This document shows, piece by piece, positions 10,049 to 44,962 of a DNA stretch of 64,000 nt. A program made the position numbers and the translations under genes. Origin of the DNA: Escherichia coli (GTDB lineage: Bacteria; Pseudomonadota; Gammaproteobacteria; Enterobacterales; Enterobacteriaceae). Below the pieces are notes generated by a model. The model was not told the origin of the DNA. It did no database searches and saw only the letters and a list, made by a program, of their open reading frames with translations. Where the stretch lies: assembly GCF_009931435.1 (NCBI RefSeq), contig NZ_CP043414.1. The stretch is one strand, 5' to 3'. Position 1 is the first letter of the stretch. Each line of letters opens with the position of its first letter.

Positions 10049-11641
10049 TTACTCGATCCCTTTACTACGCAGGTAATCTTCGTAATTACCGCTAAAGTCG
10101 ATCACGCGTTCCGGGGTGATTTCCAGAATGCGGGTCGCCAGGGAGCTTACAAACTCACGGTCGTGAGAAACAAAGATCAGCGTTCCCTGATACAGTTCCA
10201 GCGCCATGTTCAGCGACTCGATAGATTCCATATCCAGGTGGTTGGTCGGTTCGTCCATGATTAGAATATTTGGTTTCTGCATCATTAACTTACCAAACAG
10301 CATCCGCCCTTTTTCCCCACCGGAAAGCACATTAGCTGGTTTTTTGATGTCGTCCTGGCTGAACAGCAAACGACCGAGAATGCTGCGTACCGCCTGCTCG
10401 TCATCGCCTTCCTGCTTCCACTGACTCATCCATTCGAATACGGTCAGATCATTTTCGAACTCATATTCGTGGTCCTGGGCGTAGTAACCAATGCGCGCGT
10501 TTTCAGACCATTTTACGGTGCCGCTGTCCGGTTGCAGATCGCCCACCAGCGTTTTCAGCAGCGTTGATTTACCGACGCCGTTGGTACCCAGTACCGCCAG
10601 TTTTTCACCCACTTCCAGCAGCAGGTTGAGATTTTTAAACAGGGGACCGTTATCAAACCCTTTGGTCAGACCTTCCACTTCCAGCGCGTTACGGAACAGT
10701 TTCTTATCCTGTTCAAAACGGATGAACGGGTTCTGACGGCTGGAGGCTTTCACCTCTTCAAGTTTGATTTTATCAATCTGGCGTGCGCGCGAAGTTGCCT
10801 GGCGAGATTTCGAGGCGTTGGCACTAAAGCGGCTAACGAAAGATTGCAACTCAGCAATCTGCGCTTTCTTCTTGGCGTTATCAGCCAGCAGACGTTCACG
10901 CGCCTGAGTCGCCGCCGTCATGTACTCATCGTAGTTGCCCGGATAAACGCGCAGTTCACCGTAATCCAGATCCGCCATGTGGGTACAAACCATGTTAAGG
11001 AAGTGACGGTCGTGCGAGATGATGATCATGGTGCTGTCACGCTCGTTCAGCACCTGTTCCAGCCAACGAATGGTGTCGATGTCGAGGTTGTTGGTCGGTT
11101 CGTCGAGCAGGAGAATGTCCGGATCAGCAAACAGCGCCTGCGCCAGCAGCACACGCAGCTTCCAGCCAGGAGCAACTTCACTCATCGGGCCGTAGTGCTG
11201 TTCCACTGGAATTCCCACGCCAAGCAACAGTTCACCGGCGCGAGCTTCCGCAGAGTAACCGTCCATTTCGCCGTATTTCACTTCCAGATCGGCCACTTTA
11301 TAGCCGTCTTCTTCACTCATTTCCGGCAAAGCATAGATGCGGTCGCGCTCCTGCTTCACTTCCCACAACTCTTTATGCCCCATGATCACCGTATCCAGCA
11401 CGGTGAACTCTTCAAAGGCAAACTGATCCTGACGCAATTTACCAATGCGCTCGTTGGGATCGAGGGAAACGTTACCCAGCGTCGGCTCTAAGTCGCCGCC
11501 GAGGATCTTCATAAAGGTGGATTTACCACTACCGTTCGCGCCAATCAGGCCGTAACGGTTGCCGCCGCCAAACTTGACGGAAATGTTTTCAAACAACGGC
11601 TTACTGCCGAACTGCATGGTGACGTTACTGGAAACTAACAC
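10049..11641 (-). CDS. ybiT: ABC-F family ATPase YbiT (tandem ABC domains)
   Basis: 530 aa, two Walker A motifs ([18 protein letters not shown]); GTG start. Confidence 0.9.
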
Positions 11642-11859: not shown

Positions 11860-12780
11860 ATGAATATGAAATTGAAAACATTATTCGCAGCGGCCTTCGC
11901 TGTTGTCGGCTTTTGCAGTACCGCCTCTGCGGTAACTTATCCTCTGCCAACCGACGGGAGTCGCGTGGTTGGTCAGAATCAGGTGATCACCATTCCTGAA
12001 GGTAACACTCAGCCGCTGGAGTATTTTGCCGCCGAGTACCAGATGGGTCTTTCCAACATGATGGAAGCTAACCCGGGTGTGGATACCTTCCTGCCGAAAG
12101 GCGGTACTGTACTGAACATTCCGCAGCAGCTGATCCTGCCGGATACCGTTCATGAAGGCATTGTCATTAACAGCGCAGAGATGCGTCTCTATTACTATCC
12201 GAAAGGCAGCAACACCGTTATCGTGCTGCCCATCGGCATTGGTCAGTTAGGCAAAGACACGCCTATCAACTGGACCACCAAAGTTGAGCGTAAGAAAGCA
12301 GGCCCGACCTGGACGCCGACCGCAAAAATGCACGCAGAGTACCGCGCTGCGGGCGAACCGCTTCCGGCTGTCGTTCCGGCAGGTCCGGATAACCCGATGG
12401 GGCTGTATGCACTCTACATCGGTCGCCTGTACGCTATCCATGGCACCAACGCCAACTTCGGTATCGGTCTGCGTGTAAGTCATGGCTGTGTGCGTCTGCG
12501 TAACGAAGACATCAAATTCCTGTTCGAGAAAGTACCGGTCGGTACTCGCGTACAGTTTATTGATGAGCCGGTAAAAGCGACCACCGAGCCTGACGGCAGC
12601 CGTTATATTGAAGTCCATAACCCGCTGTCTACCACCGAAGCCCAGTTTGAAGGTCAGGAAATTGTGCCAATTACCCTGACCAAGAGCGTGCAGACAGTAA
12701 CTGGTCAGCCTGATGTTGACCAGGTTGTTCTGGATGAAGCGATCAAAAATCGTTCCGGGATGCCGGTTCGTCTGAATTAA
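11860..12780 (+). CDS. ldtB: L,D-transpeptidase LdtB (YbiS)
   Basis: 306 aa with signal peptide and catalytic SHGC motif ([10 protein letters not shown]). Confidence 0.85.
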
Positions 12781-13956: not shown

Positions 13957-14420
13957 TTGGCACCGTGTTTCTGGGTAAACAAACGAAAGGCATCCAGCGT
14001 CTCTTCACTAACATGGTGCTCCATGCCTTCCGCGTCGCGACGGGCGATTTCCGGACTGACGCCCAACACCAACAAGAAATTTTCGACTATCTGATGTCGC
14101 TCGCGGCTTTCCTGCGCCAGTTTCTCTCCTTCTGCCGTTAAAAACACGCCACGCCAGGGGATCATTTCAATCAGCCCCATGGTTGCCAGTCGTTTGAGCA
14201 TTTTAGCCACCGTCGGTTGCGAAACGCCCAGACGAGCAGCCATGTCCACCTGACGAGCTTCCCCCACTTCCCTGATCAAGTCAGAAATCAGCTCAACGTA
14301 ATCATCAATAAGCTCGCGCCGGTGTGCCTCTCTGACCTGGCGGAACCCTTCAACGTGCTCTTCCACATTCACTAACTGCGTCACTTTTTTTGCTGTTGGC
14401 GTACCTGCGCGACGACTCAT
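13953..14420 (-). CDS. mntR: Manganese-responsive transcriptional regulator MntR (DtxR family)
   Basis: 155 aa [31 protein letters not shown]...; recognised MntR. Confidence 0.9.
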
Positions 14421-14520
14421 TGTGCTTCCTCATTATGGTGACGCATACATAGCGTTCTCATTTCGTGCGCACATTGTAAACCAGAGTTGCGAAGGTACAA
14501 AAAATTAACGTTTTAGCAAT

Positions 14521-14547
14521 AGCTATATAATATAGCCATTGCTAAAT
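14521..14547. repeat. Left junction repeat with MntR-box-like dyad (candidate attL/target duplication)
   Basis: agctatataatatagccattgctaaat; 22/27 identical to 45328-45354; lies inside larger palindrome tttagcaatagctatat/atatagccattgctaaa (14512-14546). Confidence 0.4.
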
Positions 14548-14824
14548 ACATAAAATCAAATAAAATCATAATGTTAACAAAACAAAAAAAATAATCAATG
14601 TCGCAAAAATGTCTCACAAAACAAAAGCCATAACTTATTTGCTTGTTTTTTTATAGTGTCAGTATTAATCTAGTATATCAAAATGTTATCACTTCAATTA
14701 TTCTCTGCTTAACATTTATTTAAGAAATAATATTTTTAAGCTCTTTAAAAAAACCTTAAATAACGCTGATAGTTTCTTAGGAAAACTTAACGATAGTGGT
14801 AAATTAATCCCAAAGGACTAAAAA

Positions 14825-16060
14825 ATGGTATTAAGTAACTGTATTCAATGTCAGTCATGCAAATTTATATATAGAGTTAGGGTTGGTATTGGGTTTGATA
14901 AATACCAAAGACATTATATGGACTGTTTTGAGTGTAATATTCCTATTGTTTTTGCTATACGAACAGACCCACCAAATGCTTATCTTGAAGCGGAAGAAAA
15001 CTGCCTAATTGTTGAACATAGTACAGACCACAAGGTTGTTAACTTCCATCCGGGATGTGCTTTTAATAAAGATGAGATACATCAGTCACTGATATTCCCA
15101 TCTATTGAATTGACACAAATGATTCATAAACATATGAGGATGCCGAAAGGACAACGCCTTATAAGTGCCTCTCATCAATTTGATATTCCCAACGCCCCCT
15201 CCAAATGGAATTATTTAAAATCAATAATAAAACTTATTAATGAAGGAAAGAAAGACAAAGCTCAGAATACAGCAAAGCTTTATATGCAATCAAGAAATAA
15301 AGAGTTACCTTTGTATAATGAAGATGATAGCTATTCCTCTACATCTCTAATCTATGAGTTTTTAGATTGGCTTTTCTATCCTCGAGTACATGATATAGCC
15401 GATTCCATTAAAAAAACAATTGATGACCTTAAAGAACAAAATTTGTTGGATGATTTTTACGCTTTCTATAAAGAAAATTTAAAATCCGAAAATGAACAAA
15501 GATACATCAATATAATATCAGATTTCATGGCTCGTAGAGATCATTTCGGGCAGTTAATCTATTACGCAAGAATTAACAACGATGCAATAGACGATAAGAT
15601 AATTAGCTCTAAGAACTTCGATAATGTAAGAAATTATTATGGAGATGCTTATGAAAGTCTGACATCTAACATGACTATTTTAGCATGTATTAATAACATC
15701 GTCAGTGGAAGGGCATTCGATCAGTTCAAGCAAATGACATTGAATAAATACATAAAGGATGTAAATAAAGACAGTAAAACAAACCCATTTAAGGACAACC
15801 CTTTATTTAGCGCATTTTGTGAAGATGATTTAGAGTCAGCAATAAGAAATGGTTCTCATCATGCCTCTATATGGCATGACGGAGAGAGTATTCGATATAG
15901 AAGTGGCGGAACTGGCGCAGAAAGAGAAATAAGCTATACAAAATATATTCACCTTTGTAATAAGCTAACTCTTAAAATCGTAAGTTTGTGGTTAATTGAA
16001 CTTCATATCCAACATATTTACGAAAAAGATGATAATAGCTATGCATGGTTTCATCTTTAA
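14825..16060 (+). CDS. Hypothetical 411-aa protein with N-terminal CxxCxxC...CxxC zinc-ribbon-like cluster; orphan cargo, candidate defence/abortive-infection protein
   Basis: ORF track; A/T-rich codon usage, preceded by ~270 bp of extremely A/T-rich DNA; Cys at 6,9,12,34,37; R-x4-H (RNGSHH) near C-terminus; no family recognised. Confidence 0.5.
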   Translation: MVLSNCIQCQSCKFIYRVRVGIGFDKYQRHYMDCFECNIPIVFAIRTDPPNAYLEAEENCLIVEHSTDHKVVNFHPGCAFNKDEIHQSLIFPSIELTQMIHKHMRMPKGQRLISASHQFDIPNAPSKWNYLKSIIKLINEGKKDKAQNTAKLYMQSRNKELPLYNEDDSYSSTSLIYEFLDWLFYPRVHDIADSIKKTIDDLKEQNLLDDFYAFYKENLKSENEQRYINIISDFMARRDHFGQLIYYARINNDAIDDKIISSKNFDNVRNYYGDAYESLTSNMTILACINNIVSGRAFDQFKQMTLNKYIKDVNKDSKTNPFKDNPLFSAFCEDDLESAIRNGSHHASIWHDGESIRYRSGGTGAEREISYTKYIHLCNKLTLKIVSLWLIELHIQHIYEKDDNSYAWFHL

Positions 16061-16081
16061 GTTAAATATTTGATTCACTAA

Positions 16082-16368
16082 TTTTCAGTTTCTACTCACT
16101 CTAATGATTGTACATAGCCCGCACCATTCTTGGTATTGCGGGCTTTCAGCCGTTTATATCACTTAACGCAATTAGATCATGCAACTTTACACAATATGGT
16201 TTTTTCTATTATTTTTCAGTTGGTTGAATGGATTAGCCATCACACAACTGATCTATAAAACTGAAAAACACTGAAATTCTTTTCAATCTTTTCAGTGGCA
16301 GCTCTCCGGCAAACCGCCAACAGTGGCGCAGCCTGACGCTCACGTTTGTAGAAAAATAAAACTGAAAA
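16082..16368. repeat. Non-coding region with repeated TTTTCAG / CTGAAAA heptamers
   Basis: TTTTCAG at about 16082, 16213, 16289; CTGAAAA/CTGAAAT at about 16261, 16271, 16362; between convergent cargo gene and phage tail operon. Confidence 0.4.
16116..16144 (+). terminator. Possible terminator downstream of the 411-aa gene
   Basis: Hairpin agcccgca...tgcgggct followed by ttcagccgtttat (weak T-run). Confidence 0.35.
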
Positions 16369-16555
16369 ATTTTATCGATCCAGAAACCGCAGGCGGGTGC
16401 GGTGTAGTGCCATTTTGGTCTGCGAAAGATTTATTTTGTCAGTGCGTAGTGCCGTCAGCGCAACGTGACAGCACAGATCCTTTTGTGGTGTTACGGGATG
16501 GTGGTCAGAGAAAAAAAGTGCTTAGAATGCTTCTGGTTGCGTGAGAATACAGGTA

Positions 16556-16578
16556 TAAAAAACCCGCACTAGGCGGGT
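16556..16578 (-). terminator. Rho-independent terminator of the phage late (tail) operon
   Basis: On minus strand: hairpin cccgcctagtgcggg followed by ttttttatac, 12 nt after stop of 16590-16844 ORF. Confidence 0.6.
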
Positions 16579-16589
16579 ACTAAAGAGAG

Positions 16590-16844
16590 CTATTTCATTT
16601 CGTTAAGTGCGTACGCACCTCTATCAGTGAGTGCAAAAAAGCCATCCCTTACGCTGGGTTGAATCAACCCAAACATACGCAATTCACCCAGTATTTGTTC
16701 TGAGCGACTACCAGCACCAGAATGCTTAATTAGTGCAAATTCAGGCTGTGCTTCTTCACTGAGCAAAGTCAATATTTTGACAATGGCGTCACGTTTGCTT
16801 TCATCTGCAATGTCATGGTATGGATTGATGGAACAGGTTACCAT
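16590..16844 (-). CDS. Hypothetical 84-aa protein, possible winged-helix DNA-binding fold
   Basis: ORF track; last gene of tail-operon direction; C-terminal segment GSRSEQILGELRMFGLIQ...FFALTDRGAYAL resembles wHTH regulators. Confidence 0.4.
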   Translation of the reverse strand: MVTCSINPYHDIADESKRDAIVKILTLLSEEAQPEFALIKHSGAGSRSEQILGELRMFGLIQPSVRDGFFALTDRGAYALNEMK

Positions 16845-17020
16845 AGTGTTTTCCTTTTTTTATGAAAATCATATTTTACCATATCCCAACACGCCATATT
16901 GAAGTGCTCAATATTCACTCACCCTAAAAGGTATCTGTTGTGCAATCAGTTCCCCTACTCCCAGGTATCGCGGTTAAACAGGTATCAAAAAGCCGCATTA
17001 TGCGCGGGCTGATGGGATGA

Positions 17021-18724
17021 TCAGGCGATGATTTTCTGGTACTTACTTCGGGTCTGTCCTGCTTTCTCTGCTGTCTGGGTAAATGCTCCGGCATTGGTTG
17101 GCGTACCAACACTGGGGTGCGAATGACTCGCACATTGCTGCGCCAGCTCTGCCAGTAAATCAATGGTGTCCAACATCATGGTCAGCGTGTTTACACTCTC
17201 ACTGCCGATATGGATGGTTGGCCCCATAATCTGCTGACCGCCCGATGCTACCGATTTGCGTAATGCAGTAATCTTTTCAGTCAGGCTTTCGCCAACCTCC
17301 ACGGCTACAGCACCGCCCACTTTAATGGACTGCTGTCCTGCTATGTCCGTTTCTTCGTTTCCTTCAATGCTGGCCAGCCTGTTACCTTTCACGGCCTGGC
17401 TAAAATCCCCGGCACTGACCTGCTGAATGGCTCCGGCTAGCAGGGTGGCGGTCCCCACCACAATGGTTTTATCCGTGGCTTTAACCGTGGTTTCGCGACT
17501 GACCAGATCACGTTGTTCTGTATCTGCTTTTACCGTTCGCACCATCGATGTTTCACTGATGGTCTGATCGGTCTGCCTTACCCAGTCACCCGCCAGAGTC
17601 ACCCTCTGGGATACTTCTTCCCGCTGCTGCTGCAATTGCTCACCGGGTTTAACGTCCGGCAGACTGGTGCCATCCGGTAGCGTCTGCCTGATAAAAGGTT
17701 TATCCGGTCTGCCTCCTGTGAATGCGACCTCAACCAGCGTCCCTTCTGGCGGGAACTGAAACATACCTGAATCATTCCCGGCCATTGGTACCGGCAGCGG
17801 CACCGCTGAATAAACAGGCGTCTGATTGTCCGGATTTCCGTCTGCGTCAAGCAGCTGCACGTCCACGGCGTAACGTGGCCGGAAGGGATCGGCAAAGTTA
17901 CCGCTTTTTACCGGCTCTGAATGCGCCACGACTCTGGCCATCTTTGGCAAATGAAGCCCGGATGCCAGTTCCGGGTAATGGCTTTCAATCTGCCGTTGCG
18001 CTGGTGTTTTCTGCAAAGGTTTACCCGTTGCGCGGTTTCTCGGCGTCCATGTGATCGCCATCGTGTCATTAGTCAGGTGAACTTTAGTCACGCGTTCACC
18101 GTTCATCTCCACCCCTGGCCGCATAGTCTGGATCACTGGTAATGTCACAGAGTTACCGCCAGCAGCCCCCTGGCTGAACTCTGACGGGATTTCTACTGGA
18201 CGACCGGCAAACAATGACTTTTCTGCGCCGCCGACGTAAAGCGAACCATCAGGTAACTGGTACCAGATGTAATCCTGGATACTGAACGCCCTGCCCAGAT
18301 TGTTCAGCAACTGATAACCAGTACCGTTATGGGTAAAATGTGGGATGGGGGTATCGCTGTACTGTGCATCAGGCACACTGACCGTGATCCCGCTGTTTTC
18401 TTCCAGCCAGCCCGCAATTTCACGCAAAGTCGGGTGTTGAAACGAACATGGCCACATCCTTTCAAACACACCTACCAGCTCACGAATGAATAGGCGCTGA
18501 AAACCGTTTTCAGCGGGCTGCGATCGCTCCACATACCCCGTAAACCAGCGCAAAAGCAGATCGGTATACCCCACATCCAGCCGCACCAGTTTTCCGGTGT
18601 AATCGGTTGTTGTCTCTGCGGTGATGAAGCCCCGGCCGCAGCTGTTCAGCTCCAGTACCAGGCTGACATCCACCAGGTGAACTTCATCCGTTGAAAGGTA
18701 AAGACGTTTTACTGGTTTCATCAT
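17021..18724 (-). CDS. Phage tail/baseplate protein, probable hub-spike (gpD/VgrG-like), 567 aa
   Basis: Size, position at end of tail module, Gly/Thr/Val-rich beta-strand-like C-terminal half; family assignment by recall only. Confidence 0.45.
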   Translation of the reverse strand: MMKPVKRLYLSTDEVHLVDVSLVLELNSCGRGFITAETTTDYTGKLVRLDVGYTDLLLRWFTGYVERSQPAENGFQRLFIRELVGVFERMWPCSFQHPTLREIAGWLEENSGITVSVPDAQYSDTPIPHFTHNGTGYQLLNNLGRAFSIQDYIWYQLPDGSLYVGGAEKSLFAGRPVEIPSEFSQGAAGGNSVTLPVIQTMRPGVEMNGERVTKVHLTNDTMAITWTPRNRATGKPLQKTPAQRQIESHYPELASGLHLPKMARVVAHSEPVKSGNFADPFRPRYAVDVQLLDADGNPDNQTPVYSAVPLPVPMAGNDSGMFQFPPEGTLVEVAFTGGRPDKPFIRQTLPDGTSLPDVKPGEQLQQQREEVSQRVTLAGDWVRQTDQTISETSMVRTVKADTEQRDLVSRETTVKATDKTIVVGTATLLAGAIQQVSAGDFSQAVKGNRLASIEGNEETDIAGQQSIKVGGAVAVEVGESLTEKITALRKSVASGGQQIMGPTIHIGSESVNTLTMMLDTIDLLAELAQQCASHSHPSVGTPTNAGAFTQTAEKAGQTRSKYQKIIA

Positions 18725-33819: not shown

Positions 33820-33901
33820 ATCCCCCCTGCTTCACTCCCTGACGCTGCAAATCAATTATTGCCAAATATAACCGCCACCGCATTACGCTTTATTCTTTTC
33901 A

Positions 33902-33926
33902 GTTCGGTTATAACGCTTTGCCGAAC
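33902..33926. promoter_or_regulatory. Dyad-symmetry element GTTCGG-N13-CCGAAC in divergent late promoter region
   Basis: Perfect 6-bp inverted repeat about 55-80 bp upstream of terminase ATG; candidate activator-binding site. Confidence 0.3.
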
Positions 33927-33980
33927 AGACGCGAATTAACACCACCGTTTTTTCATTACAGCCACGGCATAATTATCCGC

Positions 33981-35756
33981 ATGGCTAAATACTCCGAAGA
34001 ACTAAAAGGCGTTGTTCGCGCACTTTATTTGCGCCGCTATACGCCAAAAGAAATTGCATCAGAATTAAATCTGCCGAATGCGCGGATCGTTTACTACTGG
34101 GCGGAAAAATACAGCTGGGCAGATTTACTCAGTTTTGAAAGCACAGAAGAAGCGATCGAACGCCGTTACCAGCTGCTGGCCAGTCGCGATAACAAAACCG
34201 ATCTCGACCTGAAAGAAATGGACATGCTTATTGCACACGCCACGAAGCTGCGTGCTCAAAGCAATAAGCATAAAGAGAAGATGGCCAGCGGACAGGGAAG
34301 CGGGCAAGCAGCTGCGCGGGACAACAATGACGATGAATCCCGCAGCAAACGCAAATACAAGAAAAACGATATCTCATCGCTGACCCAGGAAGATTTTGAC
34401 GCTTGGGCAGAAGAGCATCTTTTTGAATACCAGAAACACCTGCGCCTGAACATTGGCCAACTGGTGCGAAACATCCTCAAAAGCCGCCAGATTGGTGCCA
34501 CTTGGTATTTTGCGTATGAAGCGTTTGAAAACGCCGTAATAACCGGCGATCCGCAAATCTTCCTGTCCGCCTCCAAAGCTCAGGCAGAAGTATTCCGTTC
34601 GTATATCGTCAACATTGCCGAGCAGTATTTCGGCATCACGCTGACCGGCAACCCGATCCGTTTAAGCAACGGCGCAGAGCTGCGTTTTCTCTCCACCAAT
34701 AAAAATACAGCGCAGTCCTACAGCGGCCACCTGTACTGCGACGAATATTTCTGGGTGCCGAACTTCACCCGGCTTAACGAAGTAGCCAGTGCGATGGCCA
34801 CGCACGACAAGTGGCGCACCACCTACTTTTCAACGCCGTCAGCCAAAACACACCAGGCGTACCCGTTCTGGACAGGTGAGGAATGGACACAGGGCAGTAA
34901 AAAACGAGCGGCAGTTAAATTCCCGTCCTTTGACGAAATGCGCGATGGCGGACGTCTTTGCCCGGATGGTCAGTGGCGCTACGTCATTACGATGGAAGAT
35001 GCCATTGCGGGCGGCTTTAACCTGGCCAACATCGAGAAACTGCGCAACCGCTACAACACGGCCACTTTTAACATGCTCTATATGTGCGTGTTCGTGGACA
35101 GCAAAGACTCCGTTTTCAGTTTCGCGGATCTGGAAGCCTGCGGCGTGGAGGTGGACACCTGGCAGGATCATAACCCGGATGCCCTGCGCCCCTTCGGAGA
35201 CAGACCCGTCTGGGGCGGTTTTGACCCGGCACGCAGCGGCGATTTGTCGTGTTTCGTCATTGTCGCCCCGCCGATGTTTGCCGTGGAGAAATTCCGCGTT
35301 CTGAAAGTGATTTACTGGAAGGGAATGAACTTCAGATACCAGGCAAAACAGATCGAACAGCTGTTTAAAAAATACAACTTCACGTATCTGGGCGTTGACG
35401 TTACCGGCATTGGCCAGGGTGTTTTTGACAATATCCAGCATTTCGCCATGCGTGTGGCCGTCGCCATTCGTTACGACATGAACACCCAAAACCAGCTGGT
35501 ACTGAAGGCGGCAGACGTGGTGGAAAGCCAGCGCATTGAATGGGACAAAAACCTGAAAGAGATCCCGGCCAGTTTTATGTCCGTGCGCCGAACCACCACA
35601 CAGAGCGGCAACGCCATGACGTTTGTCGCAGACCGCAGCCAGGACACTGGTCACGCAGAGGCATTCTGGGCAATCACCCACGCCCTGCATAACGAGCCTC
35701 TGAACTACGAAAACAAACCGAAATCCCGCTGGGGTGTGAGGAACAAAGCAGCATGA
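33981..35756 (+). CDS. Terminase large (ATPase) subunit, gpP-like
   Basis: Track ORF starts at TTG 33918; ATG at 33981 gives ~591 aa, the size of P2 gpP; divergent from O-N-M-L. Confidence 0.75.
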   Translation: MAKYSEELKGVVRALYLRRYTPKEIASELNLPNARIVYYWAEKYSWADLLSFESTEEAIERRYQLLASRDNKTDLDLKEMDMLIAHATKLRAQSNKHKEKMASGQGSGQAAARDNNDDESRSKRKYKKNDISSLTQEDFDAWAEEHLFEYQKHLRLNIGQLVRNILKSRQIGATWYFAYEAFENAVITGDPQIFLSASKAQAEVFRSYIVNIAEQYFGITLTGNPIRLSNGAELRFLSTNKNTAQSYSGHLYCDEYFWVPNFTRLNEVASAMATHDKWRTTYFSTPSAKTHQAYPFWTGEEWTQGSKKRAAVKFPSFDEMRDGGRLCPDGQWRYVITMEDAIAGGFNLANIEKLRNRYNTATFNMLYMCVFVDSKDSVFSFADLEACGVEVDTWQDHNPDALRPFGDRPVWGGFDPARSGDLSCFVIVAPPMFAVEKFRVLKVIYWKGMNFRYQAKQIEQLFKKYNFTYLGVDVTGIGQGVFDNIQHFAMRVAVAIRYDMNTQNQLVLKAADVVESQRIEWDKNLKEIPASFMSVRRTTTQSGNAMTFVADRSQDTGHAEAFWAITHALHNEPLNYENKPKSRWGVRNKAA

Positions 35757-36814
35757 GCAAAAAGAAACGCTTCGTTAAGCGCGACCCGCGCGGCGATAAA
35801 TCAAAAAAGATGAGCATTATCACGTTCGACAAACCGGAACCAGTGCTGACCACCGGCACGGATTACCGTGATATCTGGTATGACAACGCCGCAGATCACT
35901 ACACCCAGCCGATTGACCGGCTGGCGCTGGCGCAACTTATCAACCTTAACGGCCAGCATGGTGGCATCATCCACGCCCGAAAAAATATGATTGTGTCCGA
36001 TTACCTAGGGGGCGGTCTGACGTATGACCAGCTTGAAGCCGCAGCGTTTGACTATACGACCTTCGGAGATATCGCGATTGGCAAAATCCGCAATGGCTGG
36101 GGAGACGTGATCGGGCTGGAGCCTTTACCCGGTCTGTATATCCGCCGCCGTAAACTCAGGGATAACGCAGAAAATGTACCCGGTGATTATGTGGTTCTAC
36201 AGGAAGGAGAGCCGCAAATCTGGCCGCAGGAAGACATTATTTTTATCAAAATGTATGACCCCCAGCAGCACATCTACGGGCTGCCGGATTATATCGGAGG
36301 GGTGCATTCGGCCTTACTGAACAGTGAGGCGGTCATTTTCCGCCGTCGCTACTACCATAACGGCGCCCATACGGGTGGCATCCTGTACACGCGTGACCCC
36401 AGCATGACGGATGAAATGGAAGAAGAGATTGAACAGCAGCTGCGTGACAGCAAAGGGATCGGCAACTTCTCCACCATTCTGGTGAACATTCCAGGCGGGG
36501 ACGGTGACGCCATCAAATTCATTGAAATGGGGGATATCTCTGCAAAAGATGAATTTGCCAACATCAAAAATATCAGTGCGCAGGACATTCTCAACGCTCA
36601 CCGCTTTCCCGCAGGGCTGGCCGGAATTGTCCCGCAGAATACTGCCGGGCTGGGTGATGTTGAAAAGGCTGAAAGGATTTACAAGAAAAGCGAGATAGCG
36701 CCCATTCAGCGCCGGTTTATGACCGCTGTTAACAACGATCCCGAAATACCTGAACGGCTGCATCTTAACTTCGATTTAAGTTACACAGAATCAACGGATA
36801 AGGATGCGGCATGA
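35753..36814 (+). CDS. Portal protein, gpQ-like
   Basis: 353 aa, start overlaps terminase stop; P2-type P-Q arrangement. Confidence 0.75.
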   Translation: MSKKKRFVKRDPRGDKSKKMSIITFDKPEPVLTTGTDYRDIWYDNAADHYTQPIDRLALAQLINLNGQHGGIIHARKNMIVSDYLGGGLTYDQLEAAAFDYTTFGDIAIGKIRNGWGDVIGLEPLPGLYIRRRKLRDNAENVPGDYVVLQEGEPQIWPQEDIIFIKMYDPQQHIYGLPDYIGGVHSALLNSEAVIFRRRYYHNGAHTGGILYTRDPSMTDEMEEEIEQQLRDSKGIGNFSTILVNIPGGDGDAIKFIEMGDISAKDEFANIKNISAQDILNAHRFPAGLAGIVPQNTAGLGDVEKAERIYKKSEIAPIQRRFMTAVNNDPEIPERLHLNFDLSYTESTDKDAA

Positions 36815-36864
36815 GGCGAAAAAGGCTAAAATCCAGGCATCATTTAACAGCTGGAGCATGGAAT

Positions 36865-37134
36865 ATGCGAGTTCTGAAAATCGAATGCCCGGAATGCGGC
36901 TCAAAGGCTGTTATTCGTAAAACAAACCGGAAGCACCGGCAGATTGCGGATATTTACTGCGCATGTTCAGATGTGGAGTGTGGCCATACTTTTGTTATGA
37001 ACCTGACGTTCTCCCACACTCTCAGCCCCAGCGCTAAAACGGGTGATGCGATGGTGCAAAAAATACTGAATGCACTTTCACCCGATCAGCGCCAGATGGC
37101 ATTAGACCTACTGAAAGCGCCCCCCGCCGCCTGA
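36865..37134 (+). CDS. Ogr/Delta-family zinc-finger late-gene transcription activator (C-terminally extended)
   Basis: From ATG 36865: MRVLKIECPECG...YCACSDVECGHTF matches C-x2-C...C-x4-C-x2-TF spacing of Ogr/Delta/186 B. Confidence 0.6.
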   Translation: MRVLKIECPECGSKAVIRKTNRKHRQIADIYCACSDVECGHTFVMNLTFSHTLSPSAKTGDAMVQKILNALSPDQRQMALDLLKAPPAA

Positions 37135-37137
37135 AAT

Positions 37138-37170
37138 GCCCCCATTCTGGGGGCGTTGCCCTTCCTTTTT
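37138..37170 (+). terminator. Rho-independent terminator after ogr-like gene
   Basis: Hairpin gcccccattctgggggc followed by gttgcccttccttttt. Confidence 0.6.
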
Positions 37171-37433
37171 AACCATTTCGCGAACCTCTCCCGCAAGCTC
37201 TCCAATCCAGGCCAAAGCGATTGTTTTCTCTCTCTGGTTACTTTCGTAAACATGGGCAATTTTGGCCAATAACTCAATGCGTTCCAGCTGTGCCGACGCC
37301 TCCAAAAGATCCATTTAGCCCCCACAAGCAATAAATAACTGGATATACATACAGTATACCTTAAAGCACGAATTGTGAAATTTAATTTCCTGTCATCTAC
37401 TGACAAATGAATGCCTTTCACATACTTACACCG

Positions 37434-39458
37434 CTATAACCACCCCGGCCACAGCTCCTGTAATGGCTCGTTTTGAGTCTCTTTAAGCCGTCCGTTGCGG
37501 TAAATCAGAGCGCCCTGACCAAATCTCAAACCACTACCCCGCAGGAGAATAGCTATTTCTTCATCAGAACCATCAAAACCCCGACTGCGTAATTCCAGTT
37601 TTAACCGTCTGCGGGTTCCCCCTTCCGTACAGTTATTGACAGAACTCCAAGGGGCGGCGTTGCCGCCAGAAAAACCCGCCTCCGCTGGCGCTGCGGCCAA
37701 CTTCGCAACCTTCTGCCACTTCACCAGGCGCGTACATACCGCTGAATCTGGAATCAATGGAGAATAGACACCCTGAACGCGCTGCACGTCCTCTGCGTAT
37801 TCATTGCCCTGCTCTGTGATTTCATAAGCCAGACGAACAACCAGATCACGACGGGCAACCAGTGCGCCACCCTGCTCCTGGGTGTATGCCGCCCAGTCCC
37901 CAACATCCGCAGCAGCCAGAACCGCATCCATTCTGCGGTCAGTCAGCACCTGATCACGTAACCGGCGCAACTCGCGCCAGACTGTCACTGGCGCACCGCC
38001 AATCTGCTGAAACTGGCGAATGCGCCAGCGTGAAGCCCATGCAGAAACGGACTTGGCCATATCCCGCAGGTTCTCCCCTGTTTCGTCGTCCTGCTCACCA
38101 TCCAGCGCAAACCCATCAATGTTTTTGGATATGTATTTGGCGATGTAACCCGTAGCCGAACCTTTAGCGGGATCGATGGCTTCAACATGGAAACGTGCCT
38201 TTAGCGCGTTTGGCGTTTGCAGTTCTTCGGAGTCGGTAATTCTGGCGTGATAGCAAAGAATATCGCGCACGGTATCCACATCACCAGGACGCATAAAAAG
38301 CAGCATGTGCCAGTGCGGTGTCCCATCGTGGTGAGGCTCTACCACACGAAAACCAAAAACATGGATACCAGCACGGGAAATAGCGGCGCGGGCTTTCGCC
38401 CATACACCGCATAAGTAACGCTGGGTGTCCTGCGGGGTGCAGCCATCCCACTGTGAAACAAAGCCCCCTTTGCTGTGTACCGCATGGAATCGCGATGGCG
38501 CAGTGATGGTGTAAAACTCACCGGCCAGCCCTTCTTCATTGGCCATATCTTCAAATCCTCTCATTCTTACCATTAGCTCACAGCGACGGATCGCCGGATT
38601 AGCAACGCTGCGGTGCACCATGCTGTCCAGCGCAATACGCAGCCCTTCATCATTCAGCAGGTCAAACTTTTTGAAGAACTCAAGGTTCCGCTTTTTCTGG
38701 TCTATCCATTCGCCCAGGGTTTTACGGGACACATAAGCGCTGGCCGCTTTCTGTACTTGCCCCACTGCAATGGCCATATGCTCACGCTGCATATCCCGCG
38801 CCCGCTTAAGACGCAGATACCACCATTCTGGTGCCATCATGCGGAGGATCCCGGATTCAGCCTTACGCGTTTCCAGTTGCCCGCCATTAGCTTCATGTTC
38901 AGCCCAGTACGGCGGCGGATTGTTCAGCATCAGGGAACACGTGCATAAATGGCGGTAAGACTCCAGCGTACGGCGGCGCAGCTCTGCGGCATCGTCAGTG
39001 CTGCCCACAAACTGATTGGTAAAGTCATACAGTGACTGGGAGATCCAGCCAGATATCTGGCCAGCCAGTTTTTTGAGTTCCGGGCGGTCAAGTGACGGCA
39101 GTCGCTCCAGCGACTTACCGAAAGGAAGATCAAGTGCATCAGCGGCCAGTTTGTAACGTGCAGCCACTTTTCGCAGACGTGGCAATACATTCCCGCCGAT
39201 AGTTTTGCGCAGGAATGTATTGGCACGGCGACGCCCGTCACGACCAGCCAGCAGCTTTTCGTAACGGTTGCCAAAATACCCGGCTAACCAGTCGGGTATT
39301 TCATGCAGGTACTGGGATCGCCATTCATAATCCTGTGGGTTTACAGCCCGCAAACGGCGTTCTGTGATCGTTGCATCTGAAGGAGTGCCAGGCGCAAAGG
39401 TTTCACGCCGCCAGGCATTGACGGCGTGGTGTTGGCCAGGCTCCAGCATATCAACCAC
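37434..39458 (-). CDS. Replication initiation endonuclease (P2 gpA / 186 A family)
   Basis: 674 aa; size and position in early operon downstream of dam. Confidence 0.65.
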   Translation of the reverse strand: MVDMLEPGQHHAVNAWRRETFAPGTPSDATITERRLRAVNPQDYEWRSQYLHEIPDWLAGYFGNRYEKLLAGRDGRRRANTFLRKTIGGNVLPRLRKVAARYKLAADALDLPFGKSLERLPSLDRPELKKLAGQISGWISQSLYDFTNQFVGSTDDAAELRRRTLESYRHLCTCSLMLNNPPPYWAEHEANGGQLETRKAESGILRMMAPEWWYLRLKRARDMQREHMAIAVGQVQKAASAYVSRKTLGEWIDQKKRNLEFFKKFDLLNDEGLRIALDSMVHRSVANPAIRRCELMVRMRGFEDMANEEGLAGEFYTITAPSRFHAVHSKGGFVSQWDGCTPQDTQRYLCGVWAKARAAISRAGIHVFGFRVVEPHHDGTPHWHMLLFMRPGDVDTVRDILCYHARITDSEELQTPNALKARFHVEAIDPAKGSATGYIAKYISKNIDGFALDGEQDDETGENLRDMAKSVSAWASRWRIRQFQQIGGAPVTVWRELRRLRDQVLTDRRMDAVLAAADVGDWAAYTQEQGGALVARRDLVVRLAYEITEQGNEYAEDVQRVQGVYSPLIPDSAVCTRLVKWQKVAKLAAAPAEAGFSGGNAAPWSSVNNCTEGGTRRRLKLELRSRGFDGSDEEIAILLRGSGLRFGQGALIYRNGRLKETQNEPLQELWPGWL

Positions 39459-39651
39459 GGTTAACCCACTTGCGCCAGAAATCTATCAGGAAGGCCACTA
39501 CCAGCGGTAGCCAGAAAACCGCACTCAGAGTGATTAACCCTAAGTCCTCAGCGTCGTGATCAAATTCATCCGGGCATTCGTCCCATAAGAGAAAAGCGAA
39601 AGTGATACAGGCAAACAAGGCATAAAAGCCGGTGATAATTTCCGTCATCAT
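39451..39651 (-). CDS. Small hydrophobic protein (2 predicted TM helices)
   Basis: 66-aa ORF overlapping dam stop and gpA-like start. Confidence 0.3.
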   Translation of the reverse strand: MMTEIITGFYALFACITFAFLLWDECPDEFDHDAEDLGLITLSAVFWLPLVVAFLIDFWRKWVNRG

Positions 39652-42364: not shown

Positions 42365-42619
42365 TTACGCGTTAAGCGAAATATCACATTCGCTTAACGC
42401 CTGAATGGTAAGCGCGGCCATGTTGACTTCGACCAGGCCTTTCTTTTGCTTACCCTTCGGCTTGATAGGTAATTTTCCGTATTCGATCAGGTTCCTAGCG
42501 GTTTCTTTGTTAGTACCAGTACGGCGGCAATACTCGTCTAGAGGCAGGTATGGTTCTGGGATGATGATTGTAATGTTTGGACGCATAAGGCAAACTCCAC
42601 AAGTTAACCTGTACGGCAA
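42365..42619 (-). CDS. Apl/Cox-like or Cro-like small DNA-binding switch protein
   Basis: 84-aa ORF (alt start MRPNITIII at 42586) divergent from CI-like repressor gene. Confidence 0.4.
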   Translation of the reverse strand: MPYRLTCGVCLMRPNITIIIPEPYLPLDEYCRRTGTNKETARNLIEYGKLPIKPKGKQKKGLVEVNMAALTIQALSECDISLNA

Positions 42620-42721
42620 TACAGGGTTATATAAGGCTGCATTCGAAATGTGGAGCCAGATTAATTCGCGTTTCGAGAAGTGTCAATCACAATTTCTCGA
42701 ATCGAGATTTATGGATTCGTT
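42620..42721. promoter_or_regulatory. Lysis-lysogeny switch region with operator-like inverted repeats
   Basis: TTCGAGAA-N14-TTCTCGAA perfect 8-bp inverted repeat (about 42671-42700) and CGAAAtg...cgTTTCG, between divergent regulators. Confidence 0.4.
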
Positions 42722-43303
42722 ATGAGCACATTCAAAATTGACCTGAACGTTGACAGCACCCCGATTCTGGATCGGGTGATCGAGGCTTACGGATTTACGC
42801 AGAAGTTACAGCTAGCAGAACATCTGGACATGGCTGCCAGTTCTCTATCATCACGCTATAAACGTGGAGTTTTCCCAGCTGATATCGTCGTTAAATGTGT
42901 TGCTGAAACAGGCGCTAACCTGGAATGGCTAGCTACTGGTCACGGCCCCAAATTTAATGATGAAGAATTAGACATTCTCAGAATTCCACGCAGCAAGATC
43001 GTTGATGGCCAGCTTTACGACTCAGGCACTCTTATGCTTGATAAAGTCACTTTCCTACCAGGTAAATCACTACCACAACAGCCGTTATGCGTTTTGGATG
43101 GTCTTGTACAGTACATCGTTGACCAGTCTTACTCTGAAGTTTATGACGACGATTGGCTGGTTGAAGTAGAAGGAAAAATTAGCATTCGTACACTGACAAG
43201 AATTCCAGTACGCAAAGTAAGAGTTAGTGGCGTGGGCATGGCTTTTGATTGTGGCATCGACGACATAAAAATCATTGGCCGCGTAGTTCTGACGATTAAA
43301 TAA
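42722..43303 (+). CDS. CI-like prophage repressor (186 CI-type)
   Basis: Track ORF starts at GTG 42680; ATG 42722 gives 193 aa (MSTFKIDLNV...); int immediately downstream. Confidence 0.55.
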   Translation: MSTFKIDLNVDSTPILDRVIEAYGFTQKLQLAEHLDMAASSLSSRYKRGVFPADIVVKCVAETGANLEWLATGHGPKFNDEELDILRIPRSKIVDGQLYDSGTLMLDKVTFLPGKSLPQQPLCVLDGLVQYIVDQSYSEVYDDDWLVEVEGKISIRTLTRIPVRKVRVSGVGMAFDCGIDDIKIIGRVVLTIK

Positions 43304-44380: not shown

Positions 44381-44962
44381 CTAACCTGTTTTCAGCAACA
44401 ACCACTGGAGGAAAACAACAACAATGTAGATTAAAGTTACAGACCCCAGAAACAGCAATAGTTGACAAAAATGAATAAAGGCCGGATGGTGAAGTTTTTG
44501 AGGAACCAAGGTTATATTTCGTGCAATTCCTTCTTTACATCTCACTGTGAGCAACGCGGGTAAGTCAGTATTTATCGACATAACCTCACATCGTATAGAT
44601 TCATGTGGTGCAAGATAATCAAACAACATAACCTGCCTTTCTTCGGCATCACTCTTAATTGTGTAATGCCTTGAGGGCCAAATGTTTACGTACATAGGTG
44701 GGTAATTGAAAATTATCTCCACATTAGTAGCAGGTTCTTTTCCTTCGTTTTTAAAGGCATAGGATTTTGTATGCACCACCTGTTTTGCCTTAACAATTTC
44801 ACCTTCAGCATTACGTAACGGCTCGTTAATTAAATAGCTATATTGGTGAAGCTCTCCATAGCAAATTTTCGCTCCATTTTTAAAAATCTTATTGATAAAT
44901 AAGGTAAAAACAGGAACGAAAAGTGCAAATATTTCTTTCCCATACTGAGTAAGTATATTCAT
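44381..44962 (-). CDS. Hypothetical 193-aa protein with C-terminal TM helix; orphan cargo adjacent to int
   Basis: ORF track; A/T-rich; hydrophobic C-terminus AFIHFCQLLLFLGSVTLIYIVVVFLQWLLL; convergent with int; weak RBS. Confidence 0.4.
   Translation of the reverse strand: MNILTQYGKEIFALFVPVFTLFINKIFKNGAKICYGELHQYSYLINEPLRNAEGEIVKAKQVVHTKSYAFKNEGKEPATNVEIIFNYPPMYVNIWPSRHYTIKSDAEERQVMLFDYLAPHESIRCEVMSINTDLPALLTVRCKEGIARNITLVPQKLHHPAFIHFCQLLLFLGSVTLIYIVVVFLQWLLLKTG

Follow-up and report, generated by a model that had tools for sequence, protein, structure and literature searches.

Ogr-like gene at the end of the terminase-portal unit of an Escherichia coli prophage with HP1/K139-type gene order: plausible read-through, a facing tum-like gene and a distant cos site

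A gene for a zinc-finger protein of the Ogr/Delta family lies directly behind the portal gene of an Escherichia coli prophage and converges, across a short gap, on a gpA-like replication gene, which raises the questions of how a presumed late activator at the end of a terminase-portal unit comes to be expressed and what the gap contains. The window, that is, the whole stretch of 64,000 nucleotides that was analysed (contig NZ_CP043414.1 of assembly GCF_009931435.1), contains the prophage between mntR and mntS; an exact-match search for att core repeats recovered two 12-mers only, which do not fix the prophage boundaries. At positions 14400-17100 and 36700-37500 the window is 100% identical to E. 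coli strain MFDS1016424, the sole differences seen relative to that strain being one 63-nt repeat unit and a one-base gap. From terL to gpA (33900-39500), nucleotide identity is 88% with Escherichia phage ESSI2_ev040 (Quadragintavirus; hereafter ev040) and approximately 80% with Cronobacter phage ESSI-2 (Seongnamvirus), two members of the family Peduoviridae. The gene order is int-cI, divergent from cox-cII and onward through dam to gpA, which converges on ogr-portal-terL; the late half continues with scaffold, capsid and terS, and then sheath, tube, lysis, tape measure, baseplate and fibre genes to orf35. Thus ogr-portal-terL faces rep, and cos is found between the last tail gene and attP, as in HP1 and K139; in a P2-type map cos would lie immediately 3' of the portal gene, whereas here it is approximately 20.4 kb from the portal stop codon. 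On these similarities and this gene order, the element is classified as an ESSI-2/Quadragintavirus-like prophage (Peduoviridae) with an HP1/K139-type gene order.

The rightward late unit begins with terL (33981-35756, plus strand), encoding a gpP-like terminase large subunit (Pfam Terminase_6N, 6C and 5; start codon as predicted by PGAP in NZ_CP106924), followed by a gpQ-like portal gene (35753-36814, plus strand; PF04860, E=2.4e-17) that is also annotated as portal in ev040, ESSI-2 and RefSeq. The third gene (plus strand, 36811-37134 in a long form or 36865-37134 in a short form) encodes MRVLKIECPECGSK...YCACSDVECGHTF, which matches all 47 positions of the Ogr_Delta profile PF04606 with 70.8 bits against a cut-off of 26.3 (E=9.1e-20) as well as phrog_603, 'transcriptional regulator' (E=1e-44). 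Its cysteines C8, C11, C34 and C39 (short-form numbering) are spaced exactly as CX2C-X22-CX4C, and it is 28% identical to P2 Ogr across the finger and 57% identical to K139 orf13; an NCBIfam search with this product and with the small minus-strand ORF described below returned nothing above the cut-off. The long form, of 107 aa, starts at the ATG at 36811, which overlaps the portal stop codon as ATGA, and the short form, of 89 aa, starts at the ATG at 36865, which is preceded by a GGAG Shine-Dalgarno sequence. The early operon ends on the opposite strand with the gpA-like replication endonuclease gene (37434-39458, minus strand; PF05840, E=5e-103). The initial annotation was correct in placing an Ogr/Delta zinc-finger gene directly after the portal gene on the same strand, in regarding it as the distal gene of the terL-portal unit, which the gene order bears out, and in estimating the distance to the 3' end of the gpA-like gene at about 300 bp, which measures 299 nt to the stop codon at 37434.

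This layout is not peculiar to the window. The portal 3' end through ogr is collinear in all 80 IMG/VR loci fetched with this protein, and the order terL-portal-ogr is annotated in ESSI-2, ev040, Yersinia phage 324, Salmonella SW3, Aeromonas phiO18P, Pasteurella F108 and K139; the locus is held by 28 of 5426 complete E. coli genomes, where RefSeq names the product 'ogr/Delta-like zinc finger family protein'. An ogr homologue between the portal and replication endonuclease genes of K139 and Smhb1 has been described (2021 paper, PMC8537503). The portal-ogr layout is therefore the ordinary, already described standard of the HP1/K139-type branch of Peduoviridae, and since it is routinely annotated and in print for these P2 relatives, the placement itself carries little weight. 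HP1 contains, 3' of portal, an Ogr-like ORF (10420-10757, minus strand) that is unannotated and has an apparent frameshift in the record. The window shares with K139, as well as HP1, phiO18P, F108 and Smhb1, the succession of terminase, portal and Ogr-like genes facing the end of the replication operon, and with K139 also a convergent gene behind a LexA box and, in the divergent late promoter region, an inverted repeat of the same type. K139 differs, however, in having a small orf14, a spacer of 70 nt that contains its own promoter and, directly 5' of orf13, a CTGT-N8-ACAG box; in the window the ogr frame abuts the portal stop codon and this box is absent upstream of ogr.

The initial annotation also contrasted this position with that of P2 ogr near att, and the contrast was overdrawn. 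According to the annotation of P2, the 80-nt gap between D and ogr contains an ogr promoter, and the two transcripts end at one 'rho-independent terminator for ogr transcript and F operon'; this shared terminator indicates that P2 ogr is likewise located at the distal end of a late operon; Birkeland et al. are said to have found in 1991 that P2 ogr is co-transcribed with FETUD at late times. P2 thus resembles the window in having a small CX2C-X22-CX4C activator encoded by the last gene of a late operon with a shared terminator, and in its logic of an own promoter plus read-through, but differs in that the operon consists of tail genes (FETUD) near attP rather than terL-portal, in that cos adjoins portal, and in the divergence of the finger already noted. 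A comparable case of positive autoregulation is P4, in which the gene for an Ogr/Delta-family activator, delta, belongs to Psid (sid-delta-psu), a late operon activated by the delta product itself; P4, however, is not a helper phage but a satellite, and its delta encodes a tandem-duplicated finger protein. By analogy with these systems, an activator within a late unit that feeds back on its own synthesis is established logic in the Ogr/Delta family.

The terL-portal-ogr unit would start in a divergent promoter region, the 161-nt intergenic region between terL and the scaffold gene, in which an inverted repeat GTTCGG-N13-CCGAAC (33902-33926) is located midway between two divergent GCA(A/T)TAATT elements resembling -10 sequences. 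The window contains no other exact match to this repeat, which 49 distinct intergenic regions preserve; at the equivalent place K139 has TTCGGATAT-N6-ATATCCGAA and HP1 has TTCGGATATAGCACGTTATCCG. Activation of late promoters by P2 Ogr involves an upstream inverted repeat, TGT-N12-ACA at about -55, and contact with the RNA polymerase alpha subunit. The repeat in the window differs from this sequence of the P2 late promoters, and TGT-N12-ACA occurs 11 times in the window against 15.8 expected, with no hit at promoter positions. The repeat at 33902-33926 is the best candidate for the site at which the Ogr-like protein would act, and its co-occurrence with the Ogr-like protein across genera supports the functional assignment.

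If late transcription depends on this protein, its first expression must arise elsewhere, most likely from a weak promoter at the portal/ogr junction near the sequence TAAAAT (36827-36832). This sequence, a candidate -10 element, lies in a conserved block GGCTAAAATCCAGGCAT (36824-36840, plus strand) within the N-terminal extension that distinguishes the long form, and TAAAATCCA (36827-36835) is the longest invariant run within 630 nt among 74 distinct sequences. Around TAAAATCCA third codon positions are invariant and codon periodicity is lost, which argues for constraint at the nucleotide level; no further copy of the invariant block, as a possible operator, was found in the window. TAAAAT sits 33-38 nt before the short ATG, close to the position of the -10 element of the ogr promoters of K139, HP1, F108 and phiO18P. 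Clear promoters of their own precede ogr in K139, where the authors annotated promoter P13, and in phiO18P and F108, and HP1 has TGTACA-16-TATAAT. In the window, a scan for the sigma-70 consensus gave three hits in the region, where 4.9 would be expected, and called no promoter ahead of ogr; the proposed -35 element agrees with the consensus at two of six positions. From the conserved block, we infer that a weak internal promoter, xTGxxx-17-TAAAAT, may prime ogr and that late read-through may amplify its expression; alternatively, the invariant block could have a role in translation or bind a regulator.

Downstream, the late unit would end at a hairpin AAUGCCCCCAuucUGGGGGCGUU with a stem of 10 bp (37135-37157, plus strand; -17.1 kcal/mol, z=-2.87), which is conserved, begins directly 3' of the ogr stop codon and lies within the coding sequence of the convergent small gene. 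The strong terminator that had been proposed to follow the activator is thus apparent as a stable hairpin, but in the window its U tract is interrupted (GUUGCCCUUCCUUUUU), whereas those of ev040 and ESSI-2 are canonical. A scan for a terminator-like site between portal and ogr detected none, which makes co-transcription of ogr from the late promoter, and hence positive feedback, a reasonable expectation. Late transcripts would then include ogr and amplify synthesis of its product, comparable to transcription of the P2 F operon through ogr. The proposal of the initial annotation that placement in a late operon creates positive feedback is plausible to this extent, and the P2 precedent deprives it of novelty.

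Taken together, the probable explanation of the locus is an HP1/K139-type prophage in which the Ogr-like gene closes the late unit and is reached by read-through, a tum-like gene with a LexA box faces it, and cos is located at 16393-16407. According to an alternative that we consider unlikely, ogr is expressed only from the junction promoter, read-through is non-functional, there is no feedback, and the position of the gene is a historical accident. This would agree with the clear independent promoters just 5' of ogr in distant relatives, among them the annotated P13 of K139, with the invariant TAAAAT at its distance of 33-38 nt, and with the short start itself, which has its own conserved Shine-Dalgarno sequence GGAG and corresponds to the N terminus of the K139 protein, which begins at the equivalent MRV; the Ogr-like ORFs of HP1 and F108 have differing N termini. 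Yet an in-frame start codon overlapping the portal stop codon is kept in 44 of 44 distinct junction variants (mostly ATG, with a few TTG and two TAATG), the two TAATG loci have GTG in place of ATG at the short start, the interval from portal to ogr is free of terminators, and in P2 both routes, the own promoter and operon read-through, operate. Read-through with feedback, in addition to the internal promoter, therefore appears the plausible reading of the junction.

The gap between ogr and the gpA-like gene, where cos had been expected, is not empty and contains a conserved LexA box and a conserved small minus-strand gene. The box, AACTGGATATACATACAGTA (37337-37356), is located upstream of that gene and is conserved in relatives: alignment with ev040 and ESSI-2 identifies a conserved CTG(T/G)-N8-ACAG at 37339-37354, and CTGT-N8-ACAG, perfect or nearly so, recurs in approximately 75 of 80 related loci at a fixed distance of approximately 95 nt from the gpA stop codon, with invariant half-sites and spacers that vary; most of the 80 have the perfect form. 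Its position is the same as that of the LexA site of the p95 promoter of 186. The gene (37108-37314, minus strand), which shares 27 nt with the 3' end of ogr, encodes a 68-aa protein, and ORFs of 65-76 aa with a strong Shine-Dalgarno sequence occur in approximately 75 of the 80 loci. The protein matches phrog_698 (E=2e-22), shares phrog_8554, 698 and 1993 with Tum of 186, and resembles Tum in BLASTP (E=1e-5) and in profile comparison by hhalign over Tum residues 5-43 (92.9%, E=3.6e-7). The match is confined to the N-terminal 39 residues; the DinI-like C-terminal half is absent, the 68-aa protein having no match to phrog_189 (DinI), and a sequence search of the PDB with the tum-like family found nothing.

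The repressor ORF of the prophage (42680-43303) matches PF07022 and PF16452, the domains of 186 CI. Repressors of the 186 CI type do not undergo RecA-mediated cleavage. Against such a repressor, a short Tum-like antirepressor under LexA repression would trigger induction in the SOS response; the gap therefore probably encodes an SOS-induced antirepressor, judging from the homology and the conserved box, and this gene is the likely induction trigger of these prophages. In 186, too, a LexA box and a small gene directly follow replication gene A and are transcribed towards portal, and the window shares with 186 both a homologue of the N-terminal antirepressor half of Tum and a CI repressor of the same type. 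It differs from 186 in that orf97 is absent, no cos intervenes between the tum-like gene and the portal side, and the gene runs at its 3' end into ogr. Antirepressor activity belongs to the N-terminal half of Tum, for which Fels-2 and PSP3 have a separate gene (PMC3121763); the 68-aa protein, in which the DinI-like half of 186 Tum is missing, resembles this split form of tum. The tum-like gene was missed by PGAP/RefSeq in MFDS1016424, where it is unannotated; ev040 and several further E. coli genomes have a 'hypothetical protein' there. In approximately 8 of the 80 related loci, 1.2-1.6 kb of extra DNA is present between ogr and gpA, with an ISL3-type transposase gene in one locus and a 344-aa ORF in another (L010 4554-5774 and L061 4432-5466, respectively); by this comparison, the ogr-gpA interval evidently tolerates cargo. 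The sole perfect CTGT-N8-ACAG palindrome of the window is located elsewhere, at 42609-42624 (CTGTACGGCAATACAG) in the intergenic control region between cI and cox, and might serve as a second site for LexA or as an operator for CI.

Palindromes of the same type were also observed at the promoters of ogr homologues outside the enterobacterial ESSI-2 group, from which they are absent. In K139 the promoter of the Ogr homologue carries a perfect CTGT-N8-ACAG (12354-12369) of the LexA-box type that overlaps its -35 region; such a perfect palindrome is found at this promoter in 43 of 50 distinct K139-like loci, at -64 from the start codon, and also in phiO18P and F108. The sequence of these promoters suggests possible direct SOS control of the late activator in the K139 branch.

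The overlap of ogr with the tum-like gene invites a more elaborate reading, which we regard as improbable, namely that the portal/ogr/tum junction is a compact timing switch with two Ogr forms, an antisense tum-like transcript and a LexA link in the K139 branch. Short Ogr would be made from the internal promoter and long Ogr, by portal-coupled translation, from late read-through, while the SOS-induced tum-like transcript would run antisense into ogr, as the lack of a U tract after the hairpin on the tum strand would allow, and delay or tune late activation; in the K139 branch the link to SOS would be more direct, through the LexA-type box on the ogr promoter of those 43 of 50 distinct loci. 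Another role for the zinc-finger protein, such as restriction alleviation in the manner of Lar, or satellite control, is very unlikely. Zinc ribbons of the Lar type give weak, sub-threshold matches, and we know of no Ogr homologue of the HP1/K139 branch with a tested activator role; but the Ogr_Delta score is far over its cut-off and the Lar score under its own, the cysteine spacing is exactly CX2C-X22-CX4C, no second Ogr-like gene is seen in the prophage, and a conserved inverted repeat at the late promoters accompanies the protein from HP1 through to E. coli. Assignment as the presumed late activator is accordingly retained.

The cos site of the prophage is GCGGGTGCGGTGTAG at 16393-16407, between the last tail gene and attL, embedded in ccgcaGGCGGGTGCGGTGTAGtgcc, as determined from the ends of virion-derived records. 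The ESSI-2 record, which derives from virion DNA, has GCGGGTGCGGTGTAG as both its first and its last 15 nt, just as the P2 record repeats the 19-nt cos at both ends, and begins 198 nt beyond the orf35 homologue. The assemblies of ev015, ev129 and ev040 derive from plaque isolates recovered from viromes (PMC6969025). That of ev015 ends at ...GGCGGGTGC and starts with a Nextera adapter followed by GTAGCGCC, that of ev129 has adapter sequence at both ends, and that of ev040 contains, between GGCGGGTGC and GGTGTAG, a 41-nt insertion that includes 33 nt of the Nextera adapter. The cos 16-mer is present without mismatch in at least 120 IMG/VR contigs, including relatives that diverge from the window by approximately 22-24% in the portal-ogr region. 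On the left flank of cos, repeated CTGAAAA/TTTTCAG motifs (16240-16385), evident in a conservation profile of 79 distinct sequences and in alignment with ESSI-2 and ev040, are candidate cosB-like terminase-binding sites. The location agrees with that in HP1, where cos is at the record ends, 192 nt past the last tail gene orf35 (whose homologue is the last tail gene here) and adjoining attP/int; the cos sequences of the two phages are unrelated, and in the window cos and the tail gene are 613 nt apart, with an additional ORF of 84 aa lying between them.

The expectation by synteny that cos would occupy the stretch between ogr and gpA is thereby refuted: cos is located elsewhere, an outcome that the initial annotation had itself named as refuting, and the argument failed because it assumed a P2-type map for a prophage with an HP1/K139-type map. 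A P2-like map with cos in that stretch has a negligible probability, since, although P2 and 186 have cos between portal and the end of the A/tin-old or A/tum region, and although minus-strand positions 37112-37157 form a hairpin and then GGCGGCGGGGGGCGC, loosely like the P2 hairpin plus GGCGAGGCGGGG, the P2/186 cos 19-mer is absent from the window even at three mismatches, the G-rich stretch is coding sequence that differs from ESSI-2 at 8 of 19 positions, the gap is occupied by the LexA box and a conserved gene overlapping ogr, the approximately 320 bp between two terminators that the 186 cos region needs would not fit there, and four records derived from virions have their true ends at 16393-16407. 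Synteny with P2 must therefore not be used to place cos in the HP1/K139-type branch, and for the ESSI-2/Quadragintavirus group cos can be placed at GCGGGTGCGGTGTAG using public records alone.

Among the places considered for packaging ends and set aside were the G-rich 3' end of ogr with its hairpin as a P2-like cos, which is coding, is unconserved in ESSI-2 and lies away from the true ends; the conserved G-rich stretch and 63-nt repeats between gpL and gpM (31072-31223) as a packaging site, which proved to be only a variable region of small ORFs and repeats; and the contig ends, near ogr, of the 80 IMG/VR loci, which are uninformative as a clue to cos, being mostly prophage predictions from isolate genomes. 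In the variable gpL-gpM region, the window is without one 63-nt repeat unit that is present in MFDS1016424, and ev040 has an unrelated small ORF, 'L33'.

The RefSeq phage records NC_049393 (position 29633), NC_049395 (start) and NC_049394 (both ends) contain the Nextera adapter TCGTCGGCAGCGTCAGATGTGTATAAGAGACAG exactly at the cos 15-mer. The adapter in these three records is contamination, and by its position it marks the physical ends of the phage DNA.

Three ORFs near the ends of the prophage encode proteins of 411, 84 and 193 aa and are located between attL and cos (14825-16060, plus strand), between cos and the tail genes (16590-16844, minus strand) and between int and attR (44381-44962, minus strand), respectively. 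Searches of Pfam, PHROG and PADLOC gave no informative match for any of the three. At the matching place near the prophage end, ev040 carries an Abi-family gene and an acetyltransferase gene.
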